Positions 19,871 to 30,759 are shown, counted from the stretch's first letter. The stretch is DNA of 64,000 nt from an uncultured Methanoregulaceae archaeon (GCA_963705255.1 OY970061.1:608001-672000); one strand, 5' to 3'. Numbers and translations: made by a program. The notes: generated by a model not told the origin, from the letters alone.

Positions 19871-21187
19871 TCAGGGCTTTTTATCCTGTTCAACAAAATC
19901 GAAGACAGAGCGGATGACCCCGTCCATGTTCAGGTACTCAAACTGGGCGAAGCGGCCGAGAAGCGGGATGCCGGACCGCGAGCAGAACTCCCGGATAGTG
20001 GCGATGTTCTTCTGGTACGCGAGGTCATAGACAACGTACGCGAACGGCTGGCGTTCCACGGAAGTGAAGACGATCTTCTCCGGGGTGCAGACCTGCATCG
20101 ATGTGAGCATGGCCGTCACTTCCCGGACAAGTTCATCATCCGGAAGACTGGCGATTTCGTCGCCCGGCTGGCAGGTGATCTCGGCGAGAACGGAACTGTA
20201 GCCCTCAGGGGCCGCGTGCCGGCTGAAGTTTGACGGGAACGAGACCCGGTTGGTCTTCCCGAGGTTTTTGTCCGGGATATACATCCAGGAAATCCCCGGG
20301 ATTGTGCCTCTGATGCCGATATTGACGCAGATGAGTGCGTTGTATACCAGTGCCCGGCAGGCATCGGCGACCGGTGCCGGGAGATCCTCAAGGCAGGGCA
20401 GCAGGTTCTGGACTGGTATCGTGCAGATGACCCGGTCAGCTTTGACCGTCTCCTTACCATTGCTGATAAGCCAGGCGTTGCCGGCCTTTCTGACTGAGGT
20501 CACCAAGAACCCGGTGCGGACAAATTTTTCTACCGGCCGTGCGATTGCCCGGACGAGAGCTTCGATCCCGCCGTCCAGCGGGTACGAGAAGACGGCCTGG
20601 TGCGTGTAGCCCTCGGTATCAATCCCGATTGCGGACCTGATGATGTCTTCAACCGGTGGGCGGGGAATCCGTCCGTCCACCCAGTGGAGTGACATCCTTT
20701 CCGTGGGATATTTCCAGATCTTCTCGTTGTAGGGCACCATGTAGCACTCAGCGATACCCTGGCCGAAGGTGTAATGGATCCATTCCCGGAAATTTTCCGG
20801 CTTCTTTGCCTCCCCTTTCTCAACGGCAATCAGGTTCCGGACAAAGCCGTTGATGCAGGCAAACCGGTCCCCCGGTGGCAGCTCGTGCAGCCCGTTTTCG
20901 AACGGGTACTTGACATGCCGCCCTTTGTAGAAGATCTTCGTGTTCCGGTGGTTCCGCTGCTCGTTCCCTTCGATCATACGGCGCATGAACGCGAGGACTT
21001 CGGCGTCTCTCGAGAAGATGATATGGGATCCGCCAGTATCGAACGTGAACCCGTCCTTCGTTCTCGATCGGCAGAGTCCGCCATATTCCGGCTCCGCTTC
21101 AAGGACGATGATCTCCTCCCCTTTTTCGTGCAGGAGCCGGGCAAGCGTCAGGCCGGAGAGGCCACCCCCGAGAATTGCTGTCGTCAC
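19871..21187 (-). CDS. FAD-dependent oxidoreductase (HemY-like / UDP-galactopyranose mutase-like)
   Basis: GGGLSG, GGLCRS, DTGGSHIIFS, YPFEN, PYNEKIW, GRFAQFEYLNMD. Confidence 0.85.
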   Translation of the reverse strand: MTTAILGGGLSGLTLARLLHEKGEEIIVLEAEPEYGGLCRSRTKDGFTFDTGGSHIIFSRDAEVLAFMRRMIEGNEQRNHRNTKIFYKGRHVKYPFENGLHELPPGDRFACINGFVRNLIAVEKGEAKKPENFREWIHYTFGQGIAECYMVPYNEKIWKYPTERMSLHWVDGRIPRPPVEDIIRSAIGIDTEGYTHQAVFSYPLDGGIEALVRAIARPVEKFVRTGFLVTSVRKAGNAWLISNGKETVKADRVICTIPVQNLLPCLEDLPAPVADACRALVYNALICVNIGIRGTIPGISWMYIPDKNLGKTNRVSFPSNFSRHAAPEGYSSVLAEITCQPGDEIASLPDDELVREVTAMLTSMQVCTPEKIVFTSVERQPFAYVVYDLAYQKNIATIREFCSRSGIPLLGRFAQFEYLNMDGVIRSVFDFVEQDKKP

Positions 21188-23229: not shown

Positions 23230-23743
23230 ATGCCCAGGATCTGCCCGCACTGCGGGAAGGAATCAGACGAGGAGTCTCCGCGGTTCTGCAGCGGATGCGG
23301 TGCCCGGATGGACGGGAGCACCCCGCCGGGTACCGGGATACTTCACCCCATCCCGGGATCAGAAGAACCCGCTGATCGCGGGAGTCTGCTCATCCGTGCT
23401 TCCCGGTCTCGGGCAGGTATACAACGGTGAGACCGCAAAAGGGGTTGTCGTCTTTCTCCTCGCCCTCGCGGGACTGGCCTTCTTCCTGATCCCCGGCCTC
23501 ATCGCGTGGTTCTACGGGATGTACAATGCGTATTCCGTGGCGGGAAAGATGAACACCGGGGAGATCGCGTTCCGCGAGACCAGGACGCTTCACATGGTCT
23601 TGTTCATCGTCTTCGCCCTCGTCGTGATCGCTGTCGCGCTCCTGATACTCATCACGATGGTGATAGCGCCCCTGATGAACCAGTTTGGTTCGCTCGATAC
23701 CGGTGATTACCGTACACTGCTCGATACCAACGGATTGGTATGA
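23230..23743 (+). CDS. Zinc-ribbon + TM2-like membrane protein (frameshifted)
   Basis: CPHCG...FCSGCG then, in another frame, KNPLIAGVCSSVLPGLGQVYNG. Confidence 0.75.
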
Positions 23744-23985
23744 TCGGATGGACCGGTTGATCGGAAGTTACTGAAAATCAGAGTATACAGGAGAGATGCA
23801 CTGCCCTCATGCCGGATTGATCCGGGAACGTTTATGATATGCGATGCATCGGCAGCTTCCCGAATGTAAAAAACCAGGCCATCGGGGAGGGCGGAGAATT
23901 TAAAATCAGACAGGCAGACCTGTCATGGTCTTCTGAATATCTCGTCTGGATAGAACCGGCACGGTGAAGTTATGCAGTCGTACGG

Positions 23986-24400
23986 TTACTCCACCTCTCC
24001 TTCAATCGTTACGGTCTTCTCTTCGACCGGAATCGTGACCCCGGCCCTTGCAAGCGCCTTATCCACAACGTACCGCACTCCACTGCAGCAGGGTACTTCC
24101 CTATGGAGGGGCGTGATCGACTGGATCGTGCGCTGAACAAAATCTCCGCGAGTTTTTTAATATAACCTTCAATGTCCGAATCGAGTTTTTGACAGAAGAT
24201 GATCAGGTCCTGCTCTGCAGGAACTCCGCGTGAAACCCGGGGTAGGCGAACGGGACGCAGTCCGCGGAGGTGAGGATGTCTGCGTTGTCGAAGTACGGGG
24301 CCGCGGGGTTCAGGAGCGCGAGCTGGACCGGCCACTGCCGGAGTTCGGATGCGGTCGTCCCGCCCATCTCGGTGAGTCCGTCAGCGCTCACCCGGAAGAC
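23986..24400 (-). pseudogene. Decayed C-terminal half of an Fe-S cluster-binding oxidoreductase
   Basis: SELRQWPVQL...ADCVPFAY, then IIFCQKLD and EVPCCSG in other frames; N-terminus absent. Confidence 0.7.
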
Positions 24401-24604
24401 CCTCCAGGTGCCGTACCGGAGCGGAGCCGGATCTCGCGGGAGATGACGGCTTCCTGCGAGACCGACCGCGGCTGGAGAATTTCACGCCGGAATTCTGTTG
24501 TAATCTTCGGCAGTTGCGCAAGGATCCGTGCCGCAAATTTCACGCGGACGATTTTTTATCACAACTGGTGCAAACACCACACCGACGGTAAATGCTACTT
24601 CTCG

Positions 24605-25579
24605 TTACCGGTGCTGTATCAGGTATACGACCAATACAAGTAATGCTGAAACTACCAGAAAAGCGATAAAGATCAGAATGCTTCGCAGCCATATCTGGCG
24701 GTTGGTGAGCAATCCTCCGGCCGCCGGTTCCAGTTCAAGTCGGAATTGCGATAAATCGAGCTCTGCAAAATGCTGTAAATCGTACCGGAACGCGTTAGCG
24801 GATTGATAGCGCTCGTCTGAATTGCGGCGTATCGACTTGAGCACCACGGCCTCTATGCCCGGTGGAATTGATGGCTGGAACATGCGTGGCGAGGCAGGAA
24901 TTGCCGTGAGGTGCTGGTTCATGACAGAAAGGGCATTATCCCCGTGAAATGGGAGGGTGCCCGTAAACATTTCATAGACAATCATTCCCAGTGCGTACAC
25001 ATCAGTACGGGAATCCCCGCGTTTTCCCTGGATCTGTTCAGGTGCCATATAATCCGGTGTTCCAAAGGTATTTGATGCCCACCGCCACGTTACACGCCTG
25101 GAACCTTCAAGCAATGCGCTCCCAAAGTCGAGGATGTGAATTTTACCATCAGGTCCGACAACAACATTTTCTGGTTTCAGGTCACGATGATAAACCCCGT
25201 GAGCATGAAGATAATCTATTGTATCAGCGAGCTGGTCTGCAAGAGAGAGAACTTCGTTGAGGGGTAAAGGTGCATTTTCGCTTATATAGGTGCGGAGTGA
25301 TGTGCCTTCGATATATTCCAGGACAAGGACGACGCAGTCAGTTCCTTCCTTAAAGGTGATCGCTTTTGGGATTGCGGGATGGTTTAACTTCTGCCCGATA
25401 GAAACCTCCCGACGAAAACGCTCATACGTTGCCAGATCGCCAAGCAGGGATGCCTCAGGAAATTTAAGTATTACCAGCTTACCATCGGGAGCGCTTGCCT
25501 TGTAGATCTGGCTGAATCCTCCTTGGGCGAGTAATCCTATTATTTTATAATCGCAGACCACGTCGCCAGTTTTATACAT
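24605..25579 (-). CDS. Hanks-type Ser/Thr protein kinase with a C-terminal TM anchor
   Basis: AQGGFSQIY, VILK, RFRRE, HRDLKPEN, DFG, GTPDYMAPEQ, DVYALG; hydrophobic C-terminus. Confidence 0.96.
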   Translation of the reverse strand: MYKTGDVVCDYKIIGLLAQGGFSQIYKASAPDGKLVILKFPEASLLGDLATYERFRREVSIGQKLNHPAIPKAITFKEGTDCVVLVLEYIEGTSLRTYISENAPLPLNEVLSLADQLADTIDYLHAHGVYHRDLKPENVVVGPDGKIHILDFGSALLEGSRRVTWRWASNTFGTPDYMAPEQIQGKRGDSRTDVYALGMIVYEMFTGTLPFHGDNALSVMNQHLTAIPASPRMFQPSIPPGIEAVVLKSIRRNSDERYQSANAFRYDLQHFAELDLSQFRLELEPAAGGLLTNRQIWLRSILIFIAFLVVSALLVLVVYLIQHR

Positions 25580-25713
25580 TACGGTACCTCACTTCCCCGT
25601 TGCAGAGATTAATCCATGGAGTCTGGGGAAACCAAAGCAGATAATTCTATCAGAAATTATTTTTATTCCTTTATTATCTTAGGTAACGATGCTGGTACAT
25701 GATATAGTATGAG

Positions 25714-26559
25714 TTACTGTCTTCCCAGGATTCTCTTCCAGGAAAACCGCGGTGCAGCTTGGGGGCCTATCGTTTCTATCCGAAACATAATGGCGGTTAT
25801 ATTATCCGGTGCTCCACCCCTTAACGCAAACCGGACCAGTTTTTCACACGCTGAACTGATATCATTTTCCTGTATTGTGACCAGAATTTCCTCCTCGGTG
25901 AGTTCTGACCACAATCCGTCACTGCAGAGGAGATAGATGTCACCGGGTAGCGGTCGTTCGCGTATTATATCTGCATTCATGAATGGCTCGCCGCCAACAG
26001 AACGGGTAAGCTGGTGGCGCCCCGGATGCTGAGACGCCTGTTCTGTGGAGATCAAGTGCAGGGTAAGCAGATCATTTGCCATCGTATGATCCCGGGTCAA
26101 TAACCCGATGCGGCCATCTCTCACCCGGTAAAGCCGGCAGTCCCCTACATGGCCAATGGTTAACGAATCCTGATCTAATGCGACAACCGTTAATGTTGTC
26201 TGCATTTTATGGAATAATTCAGGATCCAGTTGAGCCTTGCTGAATACGTTCTGGTTTGCCTGCTGCAAAGCACGGCCAACCAGACGGTCCGCCTCCCCAC
26301 CCTGCCATGTATGAAATTCATCTTTAACAGATTTCAGGGCCATTCTGCTGGCAATGGCTCCGCCGCGGTGCCCGCCGAGCCCATCGGCAACTGCGAAGAG
26401 ATACCGCGAGGTCGACTCAGTCTCTGTTTTTACTTCGACCGAATGGGCGACCCAATGGGCATCCTCGTTCTGCGATCGCATCAAACCCTGGTGGGTGATC
26501 GCCCGCCACTTCACAATCACTCCGACCAGGTTTGGCGTCTTCTCTTTCAGTTGCGTCAT
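25714..26559 (-). CDS. PP2C/PPM-family Ser/Thr phosphatase
   Basis: RSQNED, VADGLGGH, HVGDCR, LTRDH, LLCSDGL, DNIT. Confidence 0.96.
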   Translation of the reverse strand: MTQLKEKTPNLVGVIVKWRAITHQGLMRSQNEDAHWVAHSVEVKTETESTSRYLFAVADGLGGHRGGAIASRMALKSVKDEFHTWQGGEADRLVGRALQQANQNVFSKAQLDPELFHKMQTTLTVVALDQDSLTIGHVGDCRLYRVRDGRIGLLTRDHTMANDLLTLHLISTEQASQHPGRHQLTRSVGGEPFMNADIIRERPLPGDIYLLCSDGLWSELTEEEILVTIQENDISSACEKLVRFALRGGAPDNITAIMFRIETIGPQAAPRFSWKRILGRQ

Positions 26560-26703
26560 GGAATTTTCTTTCATTAATGACCACACGTTCCTGTCAACAA
26601 TTAAAAGTGAGAGGGCCCGGATCCGGGCGCTTTTTCATCACTTGCTCACCTCTGGCATTTTTGTTTCATGTTTATCTCTATCAAGGGGGTCAATCTTCTG
26701 CCA

Positions 26704-28284
26704 TTACTCTTTATCCAATCCATTTGCCTGGGGCACATTCGTGGTCAGTACCGGGAGACCCTCTTTCTTCGAGTTATGAATGAACCAGGTCTGACCCGGC
26801 CACCAGCCAGACGGCAACCATTGCGAGCGCAATAATTGCATCGTTTGCTGTGTTTCCCCCGGCACTGATACCGAGCCAGATAACTGCCCCGAACATAACA
26901 AAATTCGCCAGGAAACCCAGTAAGGGGACCAGCTTGTGTTTCAGGATACTGGAATCAGGACGGTGGAAGAACGCCCACAGGGCAATCAGATTGGTCAAGC
27001 CATAGAGAAGGAAGGTGCCTGTGTTGGATGCCAGCGTGATCTGGGTCAGGTTATCCACATTCAGTACCCTGTACGCGCCGAGTGCGGCAGATACCGCCAC
27101 GAGAATCCAAATGCCATAGTGCGGTGTGTCGTACTTTCCATGCAGAACGCCCAGCAGGGTGGGTACCTCTTTTTCCTTGCCCATAGCATAGGTGATGCGG
27201 ACGCCGGTGTTCAGGCAGGCAAGGGTAGTACCAATCAGTGCCAGCACTACCGTCGCAGCAAATATAATCACAAGAATGAACCCGGTACCACCGAGCATCT
27301 GGTCACCGATAACCCGCATCATATCCCCGATGGGAGCCCCGGATGCCGCAACTGCCCCCCAGCCCGAAACTGCAGCTCCTGTTGAATCGGTGCCAGTCAA
27401 TTGAGGGCCGACAAAATAAATGGCAGCGAAGTATTCGAATAAATAGGCAAACGCGCCCTGGATGATAAGAGAGAGAAGGATTGCTCGTTTGATATCCTTC
27501 TTTGGCTGGAGCGCTTCGGAACCTAAGGAGGTCACCGACTCGAAGCCCACCAGTAACAGAATTGCGATGGTCGATTGGAAGAGCAGGTTGGTGAAGTTGT
27601 GCGGAATAAGAATGGAAGAAGCGGTTTGTACATACGCCAGTTCCGGATGTGCGTGCCGGTACAGGATGGCCAGGATCGAAAAGGCAATGAGTGCCGCCAG
27701 CTGGATTGCATTAATAACTATCGCGGTCATGGTCGAACCGGTTATCCCGCGATACGCGATATAGCCGTTCAGGACCGCAAACAGGATGGCTACGAGAATC
27801 TGCTGCCACACTGCTAGGGTGATGCCAAACAAGCCGAAGATGTAGACGATCAGAATGGCCGAGAAGGCCACCATGATCCCCGGATAAATCCAATAATAGA
27901 GATGCGATATCCAGCCCACCAAAAATTTGGCAATACGCGCCCATTTACGGTGCCCGGCCTTTTCTTTTTCAAGAAATGAGGCTTCGGCATAATAATAGGT
28001 AGAGCCGGAACCGGCTTTGGGATATATATTCGCCAGCTCGGCATAGGAAATTGCTGTTAGGAATGCCAGGATGAGCGCGGCCAACAGGCCGGTCCACATC
28101 TCGCCTGCAGTTGTTACACCACCGTTCGTCTGCGCTGCCTGTATCTGGAAGGTGGTCCAGAGAAAGGCTCCCGGAGCAATAAGCGCCATGGCATTCACCA
28201 GAAGCGAGGTCAGGTTCAGCGTGCGTTTCATTGTTCCTGTGGTCTGGCCCCGGTCGTCTGGTTATTACTTTGTGCTTGATCCAT
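26704..28284 (-). CDS. APC-superfamily amino acid/amine permease (indels at both ends)
   Basis: About 12 TM helices, ALIAPGAF, SYAELA, GFES; the SD (AAGGAGG)-preceded ATG at 28284 and the C-terminal tail (...NGLDKE*) each need a small indel. Confidence 0.88.
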
Positions 28285-28323
28285 CAATCAAATCCTCCTT
28301 AACCAAATCATGAACGTGTACAT

Positions 28324-28360
28324 GGAAGGATATTTCCTTCTATATATTATAAATATTCCT
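28324..28360 (-). promoter_or_regulatory. TATA box + perfect NrpR-type operator GGAA-N6-TTCC upstream of the permease
   Basis: Minus strand reads TTTATAATATATAGAA-GGAAATATCCTTCC; operator at 28324-28337. Confidence 0.8.
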
Positions 28361-28545
28361 ATTTAATCAAAATAAAAACACAAAGCATACCGAATTAATG
28401 ATACTGCTAGTAAAAATCAGCTTGATAATTGTGTGAACATTTCAAATTTCCTGATAAAAACTTAAGAACATACTAGGGAGAAGAAAATTCTGGAGTACTG
28501 AAAAAGGAAGGATAGTCCTTTGTTGAAGATTCCTTCATCCAAATT

Positions 28546-28875
28546 TCATCTCCAAGTTTCATCAGTACGCACTTTGGCCATCATCTCAACCGGCAGGATA
28601 AATATTTTTCCATCACCGAACTTTCCTGTCCTGCCGGTGGCACGGATGATCGAGATGATTGTATCGACATCCTGGTCATTTACGACCATCATAAGCATGA
28701 TCTTGGGCAAGGTATCAACTTCAACCATTTCTCCCCGGTATTCAAGTGTAATACCTTTTTGTTCTCCTCTGCCAGTTATCTCAAGAATGCTCATGGCAAC
28801 AAAACCCTTCTCCTCAAGGGCTTTTTTTATCGTATCGAGTTTGTCAGGCCGTATAATTGCATGAACCATTTTCAT
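28546..28875 (-). CDS. P-II family nitrogen regulatory protein (GlnK-like)
   Basis: MKMVHAIIRP, GRGEQKG, RTGKFGDGKIFILPV; SD GAGGTG upstream. Confidence 0.95.
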   Translation of the reverse strand: MKMVHAIIRPDKLDTIKKALEEKGFVAMSILEITGRGEQKGITLEYRGEMVEVDTLPKIMLMMVVNDQDVDTIISIIRATGRTGKFGDGKIFILPVEMMAKVRTDETWR

Positions 28876-29007
28876 AAACTTTTCACCTCTCTCTTTGTCA
28901 AGATTGTTTGCTATTTGCATTTGATGCATTTTTGTTATCGGAATGAATAGCATAAGAACCATTCTTAAACTATACCAATAATATCTGTATATTCTGATAT
29001 TGTAATT

Positions 29008-29044
29008 AGAAATATTTATATTATATAGAAGGAAACATCCTTCT
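29008..29044 (+). promoter_or_regulatory. TATA box + NrpR-type operator with one mismatch (GGAA-N6-TTCT), directly before the GNAT start
   Basis: TTTATATTATATAGAA-GGAAACATCCTTCT; 33/37 identical to the reverse complement of 28324-28360. Confidence 0.7.
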
Positions 29045-29045
29045 A

Positions 29046-29600
29046 ATGCAACAAGAAATCCGATTATATATCGAAAAACTTAGCAAAGAAAATTTTGATA
29101 ATTTAATTTATCTTCGTACAAAATTTATTGGATCAGAGACTTGGCATCTTGACATTACAGTAATAAATAGACTGAAAGAGGATGCATTTTCAAAAAATCC
29201 TAAATACGAAGCGTATTTAGGGAAAATTGGAGTGGATTGGGTGGCTTATGTAATAATTACAATGTCTTATTCGACTTTTATGGCATTGCCCAGCATTTTT
29301 GTAAATGAAATATTTGTTTTAGATAAGTTTAGGGGTCTTGGAATTGGGCGGGCAATGTTTGAATTTTGCCTAAGAAAAGCAAAAAAAAGAGGTTGCGGAA
29401 AAATTGAGATACCAGTTCGTAACCGAAATAAAAAAGCAAAAAGTTTTTTTGAATTTAACGGAGCTGTTCCGAATGATATGACCTATTATCAGATGGATCC
29501 CTTTGACAAAATAATAGGAAAACCTTCGGGAAAGATGACGTATGCGGATTTCATCAGAAAGAAAAGAACAAATAAACTTTTCCGAGTATATTTCAGTTAG
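29046..29600 (+). CDS. GNAT acetyltransferase, SSAT/diamine N-acetyltransferase-like
   Basis: YSTF...IFVNEIFV, RGLGIG acetyl-CoA motif, AKKRGCGK; very AT-rich. Confidence 0.8.
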   Translation: MQQEIRLYIEKLSKENFDNLIYLRTKFIGSETWHLDITVINRLKEDAFSKNPKYEAYLGKIGVDWVAYVIITMSYSTFMALPSIFVNEIFVLDKFRGLGIGRAMFEFCLRKAKKRGCGKIEIPVRNRNKKAKSFFEFNGAVPNDMTYYQMDPFDKIIGKPSGKMTYADFIRKKRTNKLFRVYFS

Positions 29601-30255
29601 ATGACAATCGTTCAGCATTTTACATAACTCAAAAAAATTCGGTTTCAAAATTTGCAAATCGCACAAAATGAAGTTGTCATATATATTGCGGATTCAAGTC
29701 TGTTGTAAAATATATGAATGAATCATTTGTGTAGCAAGAACATAATGGTGAATTTACCTGCAATCTCCGAGAAATGCAAACACAACAAAACTCAGCCATA
29801 TGCTGTGTATATAATCCTACAAAATTTACTTTCTGTAAGGTGGGGATGATTCATAAAACATGTGCAAAATTGTACCGATTAACGCATATGCATCTTCTTT
29901 TCATCAGCCAGATCCGTGTGAGGTACCCATCCATTGATGTCACAAGTACGCCCCCGTACGGTTTCGGCCCTGGTCTCGACATGAAACCCGTATTCATACC
30001 CGATCGGTCGCCCATTAGCGTCCCACCTCCGGCCACCTGTGATCCGCGGGGATCGGACCGAATTTGTCCCCCGTTTTGGCGAATTTGTCCTCCAGATACC
30101 CACGGAGAGGTCAAACGGAGCCCTGCAAGGCCTTGTTTTCGGTCTGATATATATTGTTCTGTGATGTATCCTTGCGGTTATATGATATATTTTCAAAATG
30201 TCAGCATTCAGGTTCGCATGCGCCGGCCCGCCGCTGCATAGCCAAAATAAAAAAA

Positions 30256-30759
30256 TTACTTCCCGCTTGTCACCGTCTTTGACCCGCGGAGGATCCCGAT
30301 CGTCCCGGTCCGGACGAACTCCTTGATCCCGTACTGGCGCAGCAGTTTCTCTAGTGCATCGATCTTATCCTTGTCCCCTATCACTTGGAGGATCAAGGTC
30401 TTTGTCCCGACATCGACAATGGATGCCCGGAAGATGGAGGCGATCTGCATGATCTCGGCCCGGGATGTCCCGAGTTCTGCCGTTACCTTGATGAGCGCCA
30501 GCTCCCGCTCCACCCGCTCGCTGTCCGTCAGGTCGGAGACCTTGATCACGTCGATGAGCTTGTTGAGCTGCTTCATCACCTGCTCGATCTTTTCGTCGTC
30601 ACCGATGACCACGATGGTGATCCGGCTCATGTCCGGTTCCTCGCACGGCCCGACCGCAAGGCTCTCGATATTGAACCCGCGCCGGGAGAAGAGCCCGGTG
30701 ACCCGGGAGAGCACACCGGCCCGGTTCTCGACAAGGATGGATAAGGTATGCGGTTTCAT
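30256..30759 (-). CDS. ilvH: Acetolactate synthase small subunit
   Basis: ENRAGVLSRVTGLFSRRGFNIESL. Confidence 0.96.
   Translation of the reverse strand: MKPHTLSILVENRAGVLSRVTGLFSRRGFNIESLAVGPCEEPDMSRITIVVIGDDEKIEQVMKQLNKLIDVIKVSDLTDSERVERELALIKVTAELGTSRAEIMQIASIFRASIVDVGTKTLILQVIGDKDKIDALEKLLRQYGIKEFVRTGTIGILRGSKTVTSGK

Follow-up and report, generated by a model that had tools for sequence, protein, structure and literature searches.

Our analysis concerns five genes at positions 24605-29600 of a 64,000-nucleotide (nt) stretch of DNA from an uncultured Methanoregulaceae archaeon (GCA_963705255.1 OY970061.1:608001-672000), which is termed the window and in which positions without further prefix are counted. 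They encode a membrane-anchored Ser/Thr kinase, a PP2C-type phosphatase, a permease of the APC superfamily, a GlnK-type P-II protein and an N-acetyltransferase of the GNAT family. The properties of this cassette make it probable that it constitutes an accessory, horizontally moving nitrogen-acquisition module, whose bacterial core was adopted by methanogens.

Genes and proteins of the cassette

The cassette contains the following features:

24605-25579, minus strand: Hanks-type Ser/Thr kinase, tail-anchored, 324 amino acids (aa) (Pfam Pkinase, E 7e-47)
25714-26574, minus strand: PP2C-type Ser/Thr phosphatase (Pfam PP2C_2 and PP2C; open reading frame called to 26586)
26704-28284, minus strand: APC-superfamily permease, full gene of about 526 aa (Pfam AA_permease_2 and AA_permease)
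28324-28353, minus strand: permease promoter, with TATA box at 28341-28353, GAA and then the operator GGAAATATCCTTCC at 28324-28337
28546-28875, minus strand: GlnK-type P-II protein, 109 aa, starting with MKMVHAII (Pfam P-II, E 5e-26)
29003-29044, plus strand: GNAT promoter, second copy of the promoter module, with TATA box at 29015-29027 and the operator GGAAACATCCTTCT at 29031-29044
29046-29600, plus strand: GNAT N-acetyltransferase, 184 aa, GC content 0.32, divergent from the other four genes (Pfam Acetyltransf_1)

An earlier note on this DNA had proposed all five genes, and each is located where it had been placed. The region is also visibly richer in AT than its surroundings, as had been remarked there, with a GC content of 0.41 between 28 and 29 kb and 0.34 between 29 and 30 kb compared to about 0.55-0.59 in the flanks. 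The same trend holds for the GC content at third codon positions (GC3), which in the cassette ranges from 0.27 (GNAT) through 0.46 (P-II), 0.49 (kinase) and 0.56 (PP2C) to 0.62 (permease), versus 0.68-0.83 in flanking genes. The proposal that the four co-oriented genes act as one unit was not borne out: since a T-run is found behind the P-II gene and a separate promoter in front of the permease, P-II, permease, PP2C and kinase probably do not share a single operon. A search of positions 23500-30500 against Rfam returned no match at E <= 1, and with it no riboswitch or other known RNA in the leaders.

The permease reads as an open reading frame of 485 aa (26774-28231) in the assembled sequence, in which both tails are lost. 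Its counterpart in a reference locus (L023:5947-7527) comprises 526 aa and is 96% identical. Compared to this reference, the window is short of one base in the 5' extension, which puts an upstream ATG with a good ribosome-binding site out of frame, and it contains one extra base near the 3' end. Both single-base indels are probably assembly errors, and the true protein would comprise about 526 aa, since contigs from other public runs contain a base inserted at 28247 (X1) and lack the one at 26790 (X1, X3), and since amtB (G000:C1:896827-898045) and kdpA (G000:C1 near 1404600) of the same genome are also split by 1-nt indels. Such gene-splitting indels, which probably originate from long-read assembly, fit the 89.5% completeness of this closed genome. 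Run X1 may represent the sample from which the window originates.

The assignment of the permease to the APC superfamily is clear from its match to Pfam AA_permease (77.9 bits versus a cut-off of 27) and from a model obtained with AF2 (pLDDT 70, pTM 0.75), which shows an APC/LeuT fold. Foldseek related this model at a probability of 1.00 to BasC, GkApcT, AdiC, LAT1 and KimA, with structures of NKCC1 also found among the fold matches. Conservation within the family is strong (73 homologous sequences, mean column identity 65%), and its profile retrieves four weak matches in the PDB, all of them carriers of the CAT and LAT type. The score for the APA subfamily TIGR00909 (87 bits) does not reach the cut-off of 557, and the APA names found elsewhere are automatic. 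The name 'dimethylamine permease' of an entry in the ESM Atlas (rank 3, 0.98) was considered and is not backed; in two Methanosarcina genomes the orthologue of the permease was the only match at E <= 0.001. In archaea, the N-terminal tail is short and rich in Ser, Thr and Gln, and a Thr often precedes the conserved MKRTL by a few residues. This Thr is a candidate phosphosite and nothing more, and Thr residues at similar positions are common among APC carriers.

The kinase contains intact VILK, HRDLKPEN, DFG and APE motifs and, following the juxtamembrane motif DLDLSQF, a single transmembrane helix at its C-terminus. Because the protein ends three residues past this helix it lacks a sensor domain on the outside, and the description of an anchored, catalytically intact kinase without extracellular sensor thus proved correct. 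This architecture is shared by its homologues next to the permease, which are uniform in length (322-327 aa) and which contain a C-terminal transmembrane segment in 67 of 68 cases. The PP2C protein, whose real start is the ATG at 26574 as judged from a comparison with L023, carries the motifs DGLGGH, SDGLW and DN and exceeds the cut-offs of both Pfam families. The pair resembles Stk1/Stp1 and PknB/PstP of Gram-positive bacteria, where a Hanks kinase with a single transmembrane helix and a PP2C phosphatase are also found side by side, and which are the best NCBIfam matches of both proteins. Unlike these systems, the window kinase contains neither PASTA nor other extracellular domains, the scores remain below the equivalog cut-offs (245.9 bits versus 450 for the kinase in NF033483, 206 versus 230 for the phosphatase in Stp1/IreP), and both genes are tied to that of a permease. 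Pairs of bacterial-type Ser/Thr kinases with PP2C had been regarded as uncommon in methanogens; Hanks kinases are not uncommon in this genome, which encodes four full-length ones.

The P-II protein (Pfam 91.5 bits versus a cut-off of 25) is of the archaeal GlnK type, with the T-loop GRGEQKGITLEYRG, conserved GRGEQKG, GDGKIF and RT(D/G)E motifs and a C-terminus of its own (VRTDETWR). Its identity amounts to 57% with the two native GlnK proteins of the genome and to 76-97% with the P-II proteins of other cassettes, among them those of Methanosarcina at 80-82%. Since it carries Glu at position 49 and Val at position 51, the known modification sites of P-II proteins are absent. The window locus contains no amt gene. 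In a search of the PDB with phmmer, GNAT matched 2fe7 (5.5e-11), a thialysine acetyltransferase (7e-11) and the diamine acetyltransferases 1 and 2, with the thialysine and diamine matches spanning E-values between 7e-11 and 2e-6; ornithine N-acetyltransferases are also near. Its score for PaiA is 22 bits at a cut-off of 250.

Promoter modules and their operator

A perfect GGAA-N6-TTCC palindrome at 28324-28337 begins 3 nt past TTTATAATATATA, just downstream of the permease TATA box as the earlier note had recognised, where it would cover the expected start of transcription. This promoter is part of a 41-nt module that is found twice, at 28325-28365 and 29003-29043, as an inverted repeat with 90% complementarity, which brackets the P-II gene. 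Each copy consists of a TATA box and GAAGGAA-N6-TTC(C/T), with one facing the permease and the other GNAT. The operator of the latter reads GGAA-N6-TTCT and is followed by the ATG of GNAT after only 2 nt, which suggests that the GNAT mRNA is leaderless.

The conservation of these elements was investigated in 13 Methanoregula loci (the window, L021, L022, which is identical to L032, L023-L031 and L033). A TATA box with GGAA-N6-TTCC is found upstream of the permease in all 13 of them and in both gene orders described below, and the GNAT promoter module with GGAA-N6-TTCT is kept in five of the five loci with the arrangement of the window. The sequence GAAGGA-N4-TCCTTC, which occurs twice in the 2.6-Mb genome, both times at this locus, was considered as a locus-specific operator and was dropped, since conservation across the 13 loci is restricted to GGAA, TTCC and the GAA on the 5' side, whereas the longer palindrome is confined to the window and L023.

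The composite of an AT-rich TATA context and GGAA-N6-TTC(C/T) is found at only six sites of the genome, which precede the permease, GNAT, amtB, a glutamine synthetase (GS) of 513 aa, kdpCA and a histidine kinase. In amt loci of the genus, the motif directly follows the TATA box in 22 of 26 cases (19 with TTCC, three with TTCT), compared to an expectation upstream of amt of about 0.02 per 430 nt. The genome also contains two genes with NRD1_2 domains, one NrpRI-like (HTH_12 and NRD) and the other NrpRII-like (NRD only).

GGAAN6TTCC is the published operator of NrpR (PMC2723118; also PMC4335013 and a bioRxiv preprint), and in Methanococcus maripaludis it is described in front of nif, glnK-amtB and glnA, of two mod operons and also of a Na+-alanine symporter (PMC2723118). 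The cassette shares with this regulon the location of the motif behind the TATA box, a site that within the genus also precedes genes for amt and GS, and there is precedent for a solute carrier as a member (MMP1511; PMC2723118). It differs by its genes, a bacterial-type permease, PP2C and kinase set with an additional GNAT, none of which belongs to a described NrpR regulon. Since both promoters carry a TATA box followed by GGAA-N6-TTC(C/T), we consider control by NrpR as most likely and, judged from sequence, place good confidence in this assignment. The view that the cassette has been wired into the archaeal nitrogen regulon is thus supported in silico by the operators of all 13 cassettes and of most amt loci, by the sites at amtB and GS and by the presence of NrpR genes.

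Related elements were observed at other places. The gene of the 513-aa GS (G000:C1:1284771, about 1284950) is preceded by two operator-like sites, a distal one with the sequence GGAAGGATGTTTCT and a proximal one, AGAA-N6-TTCC, located just past the TATA box, which is also found in the orthologue in L022 (at about 6760). A doubled operator, GGAAGGAATATTCCTTCC, resides between the cassette and an adjoining nif operon in L023 (9916-9955) and L029 (2866-2905); its TATA box points away from nifH and may belong to a divergent nitrogen-regulated small transcript. In Methanosarcina, the TATA boxes of the permease are followed by TCACC-N8-ACCGG in place of GGAA-N6-TTCC, which is found in tandem in L143 (reverse complement, 14182 and 14250) and as a single copy in L134 (reverse complement, 11809) and which may be the operator of this genus. 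The promoter of kdpC-kdpA (G000:C1:1402489) carries a perfect GGAA-N6-TTCC behind its TATA box, and thus control by K+ and by nitrogen may overlap in Methanoregula.

Distribution and inheritance of the cassette

The occurrence of the cassette was analysed in 185,579 species, each represented by one genome, and 201 relatives of the permease were found. Of these, the 79 best loci were examined, which belong to bacteria (61), Methanoregulaceae (11), Methanosarcinaceae (6) and Bathyarchaeota (1), with the bacterial loci distributed over Chloroflexota (including Dehalococcoidia and Limnocylindrales), Dormibacterota and one Actinomycetota. Many of the 79 are labelled as coming from bog, fen, palsa and peat samples. 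In bacterial loci with enough downstream sequence, to which the tandem counts refer, the genes for permease, PP2C and kinase follow each other in 50 out of 55 cases and a kinase at any position of the locus is found in 54 of 55, which confirms the predicted co-conservation of these genes. PP2C is located directly 3' of the permease in 54/56 bacterial, 11/11 Methanoregula and 6/6 Methanosarcina loci. From locus to locus, the sequence identities of permease, PP2C and kinase drop together, as expected for a unit that is inherited together.

In bacteria, the gene next to the kinase on its 3' side encodes a GS in 29 of 53 loci, and a GS gene is found anywhere in the locus in 36 of 61, with Amt present in two of the 61. 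The scores of the encoded proteins range between 281 and 466 bits around the GlnA cut-off of 429, and they have kept the FDGS, GSGMH and PGYEAP motifs as well as D50, H269 and the E327 flap, whereas S53 is replaced by Ala in 13 out of 16 examined. Judged from these motifs, the protein looks like an active GS-type ligase, for which the activity of a gamma-glutamyl-amine ligase was also considered.

In Methanoregula the cassette is found in two arrangements. In arrangement A, to which the window belongs, a divergent GNAT is followed by P-II, permease, PP2C and kinase, whereas arrangement B has the order permease, PP2C, a NifI1-like, a NifI2-like and a GlnK-like P-II gene and kinase (as in L025, 8680-9995). 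Besides the window, five of the 11 Methanoregula loci of the species scan (including L032) contain the GNAT. In Methanosarcina, the 6-kb flanks contain only permease and PP2C, with Amt located upstream in 6/6 loci, and wider regions contain in both of two cases an orthologous P-II (80-82%) and a kinase (67-70%) at a distance of up to 11 kb; Amt, within 8 kb of P-II, and another P-II-like reading frame are located in between. The proposed membership of P-II in the cassette thus holds for archaea, where a protein of the same clade is found in all 13 Methanoregula loci in two gene orders and in both Methanosarcina regions, and it does not hold for the bacterial core. The NifI1-like and NifI2-like genes also occur behind amtB-glnK in the window's genome (G000:C1:895475-898045), where NifD was not found, and NifI-type P-II proteins may here have targets other than nitrogenase. 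Next to glnA, the same genome contains a remnant of amtB upstream of a second glnK (G000:C1:1055590-1056160), which is N-terminally coding and then decays.

Several features mark the cassette as an accessory part of the archaeal genome. At E <= 1e-30, two of 24 further genomes from the genus contain the permease and none of 16 that represent other families within the order, and the site is empty in a relative (G019), where the conserved left neighbour (23999-24362 in the window) and ilvN are separated by 663 nt compared to 5.9 kb in the window. The location also varies, since the cassette adjoins ilvN in the window and the orthologue of the 1.285-Mb GS gene of G000 in L022, and it is found beside nif in three of the 11 Methanoregula loci and beside a GS gene in one archaeal locus. 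At least one complete genome (G020) carries it. Flanking direct repeats and a tRNA gene at the cassette were looked for and not found, and a second cassette in the genome was equally not detected. In a midpoint-rooted quick tree, the permeases of Methanoregula and Methanosarcina form one clade (SH-aLRT 98), which is located beside copies from Dehalococcoidia inside the bacterial radiation. Composition, the empty site, the patchy distribution and this tree lend in silico support to the proposal of an imported cassette. A gene of the flavin amine-oxidoreductase family (Amino_oxidase, E 6e-30), located in the window at 19871-21187 at a distance of 3.4 kb, is of native composition (GC3 0.75) and probably unrelated.

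Proposed role and alternatives

In the reading that we favour, the divergent APC-family permease and its dedicated membrane-anchored Hanks kinase and PP2C phosphatase would constitute a bacterial invention, common in Chloroflexota and Dormibacterota of peat and soil, where a GS gene is usually next. Methanoregula and Methanosarcina would have acquired this core and added a GlnK-type P-II, and one lineage of Methanoregula would have further added an SSAT-like GNAT. NrpRI and NrpRII would keep the promoters of permease and GNAT silent at plentiful nitrogen and release them as 2-oxoglutarate rises. The permease would import a nitrogenous solute, its activity would be set or its occupancy reported by reversible phosphorylation at the membrane through kinase and phosphatase, and P-II would contribute the input of energy and 2-oxoglutarate as GlnK does for AmtB. 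The kinase is anchored to the membrane and lacks a sensor domain, and it appears likeliest that it either acts on the permease or is controlled by it. As substrate, our best guess would be an amine, a polyamine or a basic amino acid, which is weakly favoured by the resemblance of the co-regulated GNAT to thialysine, diamine and ornithine N-acetyltransferases and by the GS-type ligase that follows the trio in bacteria.

Known systems resemble parts of this arrangement. In GlnK-AmtB, where P-II acts as plug on an ammonium channel, and in SbtB-SbtA, the gene of a small P-II protein also adjoins that of a nitrogen-controlled membrane transporter and is passed on together with it. In the cassette, the partner would be an APC carrier instead of a trimeric Amt channel, and unlike in both systems P-II forms its own clade and is accompanied by a kinase and a phosphatase. 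The occurrence of P-II and PP2C in one nitrogen-signalling circuit, with a P-II kinase implied, would be shared with cyanobacteria, where P-II is phosphorylated at Ser49 and PphA is the PP2C phosphatase. Carriers that are combined with a Ser/Thr kinase are found in SPAK/OSR1-NKCC1, Npr1-Mep2/Gap1 and CIPK23-AMT1, where phosphorylation of Ser and Thr residues in cytoplasmic tails sets activity according to nutrient or ion status, and NKCC1 even shares the APC fold. In contrast to the cassette, these systems are eukaryotic, their genes are unlinked and their kinases belong to unrelated families.

A number of observations weigh against the assignment to nitrogen acquisition under NrpR. The bare GGAA-N6-TTCC motif is unremarkable in number and thus weak evidence alone, with five copies in the window compared to 1.75 expected, a count that was reached in one of 100 shuffles, and with 71 copies in the genome. 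Among 96 half-sites of equal GC content, GGAA was tied for top in the number of copies adjacent to a TATA box (three versus a mean of 0.5). The weight of the operator is in its conservation and in the genes that carry it. Of the six composite sites, those at kdp and at the histidine kinase do not precede classical nitrogen genes, and a forward site is absent from four amt loci, including L125 with the genome's intact amt. At the cassette, the distance from the start of the TATA box to that of the operator is 16 nt compared to 12 nt at amt, and since the operator is thus placed 4 nt further away, its geometry is similar and not identical to that of amt promoters. With respect to the substrate, the fold search did not separate amino-acid carriers from the K+ importer KimA, a search of the PDB with the single permease sequence gave no match, leaving a close relative of known structure missing, and relatives found in a search of 5.8 billion proteins bear generic, automatic names (APC, APA). 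The probable direction of transfer, from bacteria to methanogens, is based on distribution, composition and the quick tree. Finally, kdp is found beside the cassette in seven of the 11 Methanoregula loci of the species scan and additionally in L021.

In a different and rather unlikely scenario, the permease would mainly serve as a sensor, whose occupancy is relayed by the kinase to soluble targets such as GS, P-II or a PucR- or OmpR-type regulator, analogous to GlnH-GlnX-PknG of actinobacteria. Such a transceptor would account for a kinase that lacks its own sensor domain and retains its transmembrane anchor, for the GS gene directly behind it in more than half of the bacterial loci, for PucR-type and small winged-helix regulators in 12/81 and 5/81 loci and for the P-II genes between PP2C and kinase in arrangement B. 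However, the permease has kept the usual APC signature VGFES in TM6 and is very strongly conserved over its full length, as fits an active carrier, and the 10 loci that were annotated did not reveal an FHA protein or other substrate of the kinase.

It is even more improbable that the cassette serves the homeostasis of K+, or of NH4+ and K+, with the permease acting as a KimA-like importer that is co-regulated with kdp. The proximity of kdp in Methanoregula, the perfect operator behind the TATA box of kdpCA and the ranking of KimA at positions 3 and 7 of the fold search are in line with this idea, whereas KimA is not among the four PDB matches of the family profile, kdp is linked to the cassette in 0/61 bacterial and 0/6 Methanosarcina loci, and all kdp-linked loci belong to a single group of closely related Methanoregula with arrangement B. 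A consistent link to kdp had been named beforehand as an argument against a role in nitrogen metabolism; with kdp confined to one lineage, the assignment to nitrogen stands since the widespread and recurrent neighbours are GS, Amt, nif and P-II.

The least credible alternative, where the operator would be bound by another, cassette-linked or unidentified regulator and where the likeness to NrpR sites and the P-II and GNAT neighbours would be devoid of functional meaning, could draw on the longer palindrome that encloses the site in the window and L023 and that is unique to the locus in the genome, and on the 4-nt shift from the TATA spacing of amt promoters, but it is at odds with the conservation of GGAA and TTCC instead of this palindrome across the 13 loci, with the same motif and layout at amt promoters throughout the genus, with a P-II linkage that persists in both gene orders and in both orders of archaea, and with the absence of any regulator gene accompanying the cassette in Methanoregula.

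Returning to the reading of a nitrogen-acquisition module, its most specific version, which we put forward tentatively, describes the permease as a phospho-gated carrier that travels between bacteria and archaea together with its own kinase and PP2C, that is governed by NrpR and 2-oxoglutarate, by P-II and by phosphorylation, and that scavenges organic nitrogen. In this case, methanogens of peat would take up what are probably amines or polyamines, which would be acetylated by the co-regulated GNAT, and the kinase may also act on P-II or GS, which would make it the first kinase known in archaeal P-II signalling. Prokaryotes are known to control their nitrogen uptake by the plugging of Amt with P-II and at the level of transcription, and phosphorylation of carrier tails is regarded as a eukaryotic solution; full-text searches of the literature for the combination of permease, PP2C, kinase and P-II did not find a paper describing it.

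Collectively, the cassette contains a permease that has retained a kinase and a phosphatase of its own in two orders of methanogens and in at least three phyla of bacteria and that nearly always adjoins genes for GS, Amt, nif or P-II. Its archaeal copies illustrate how a foreign module is adopted, with an operator of native type placed in front and duplicated for a second gene and with a P-II of native type recruited, and the module offers a defined place to seek a kinase with P-II or GS as its target. Since its carriers are methanogens and Chloroflexota that are abundant in peat and wetland, the substrate of the permease would bear on the nitrogen limitation of methane production.

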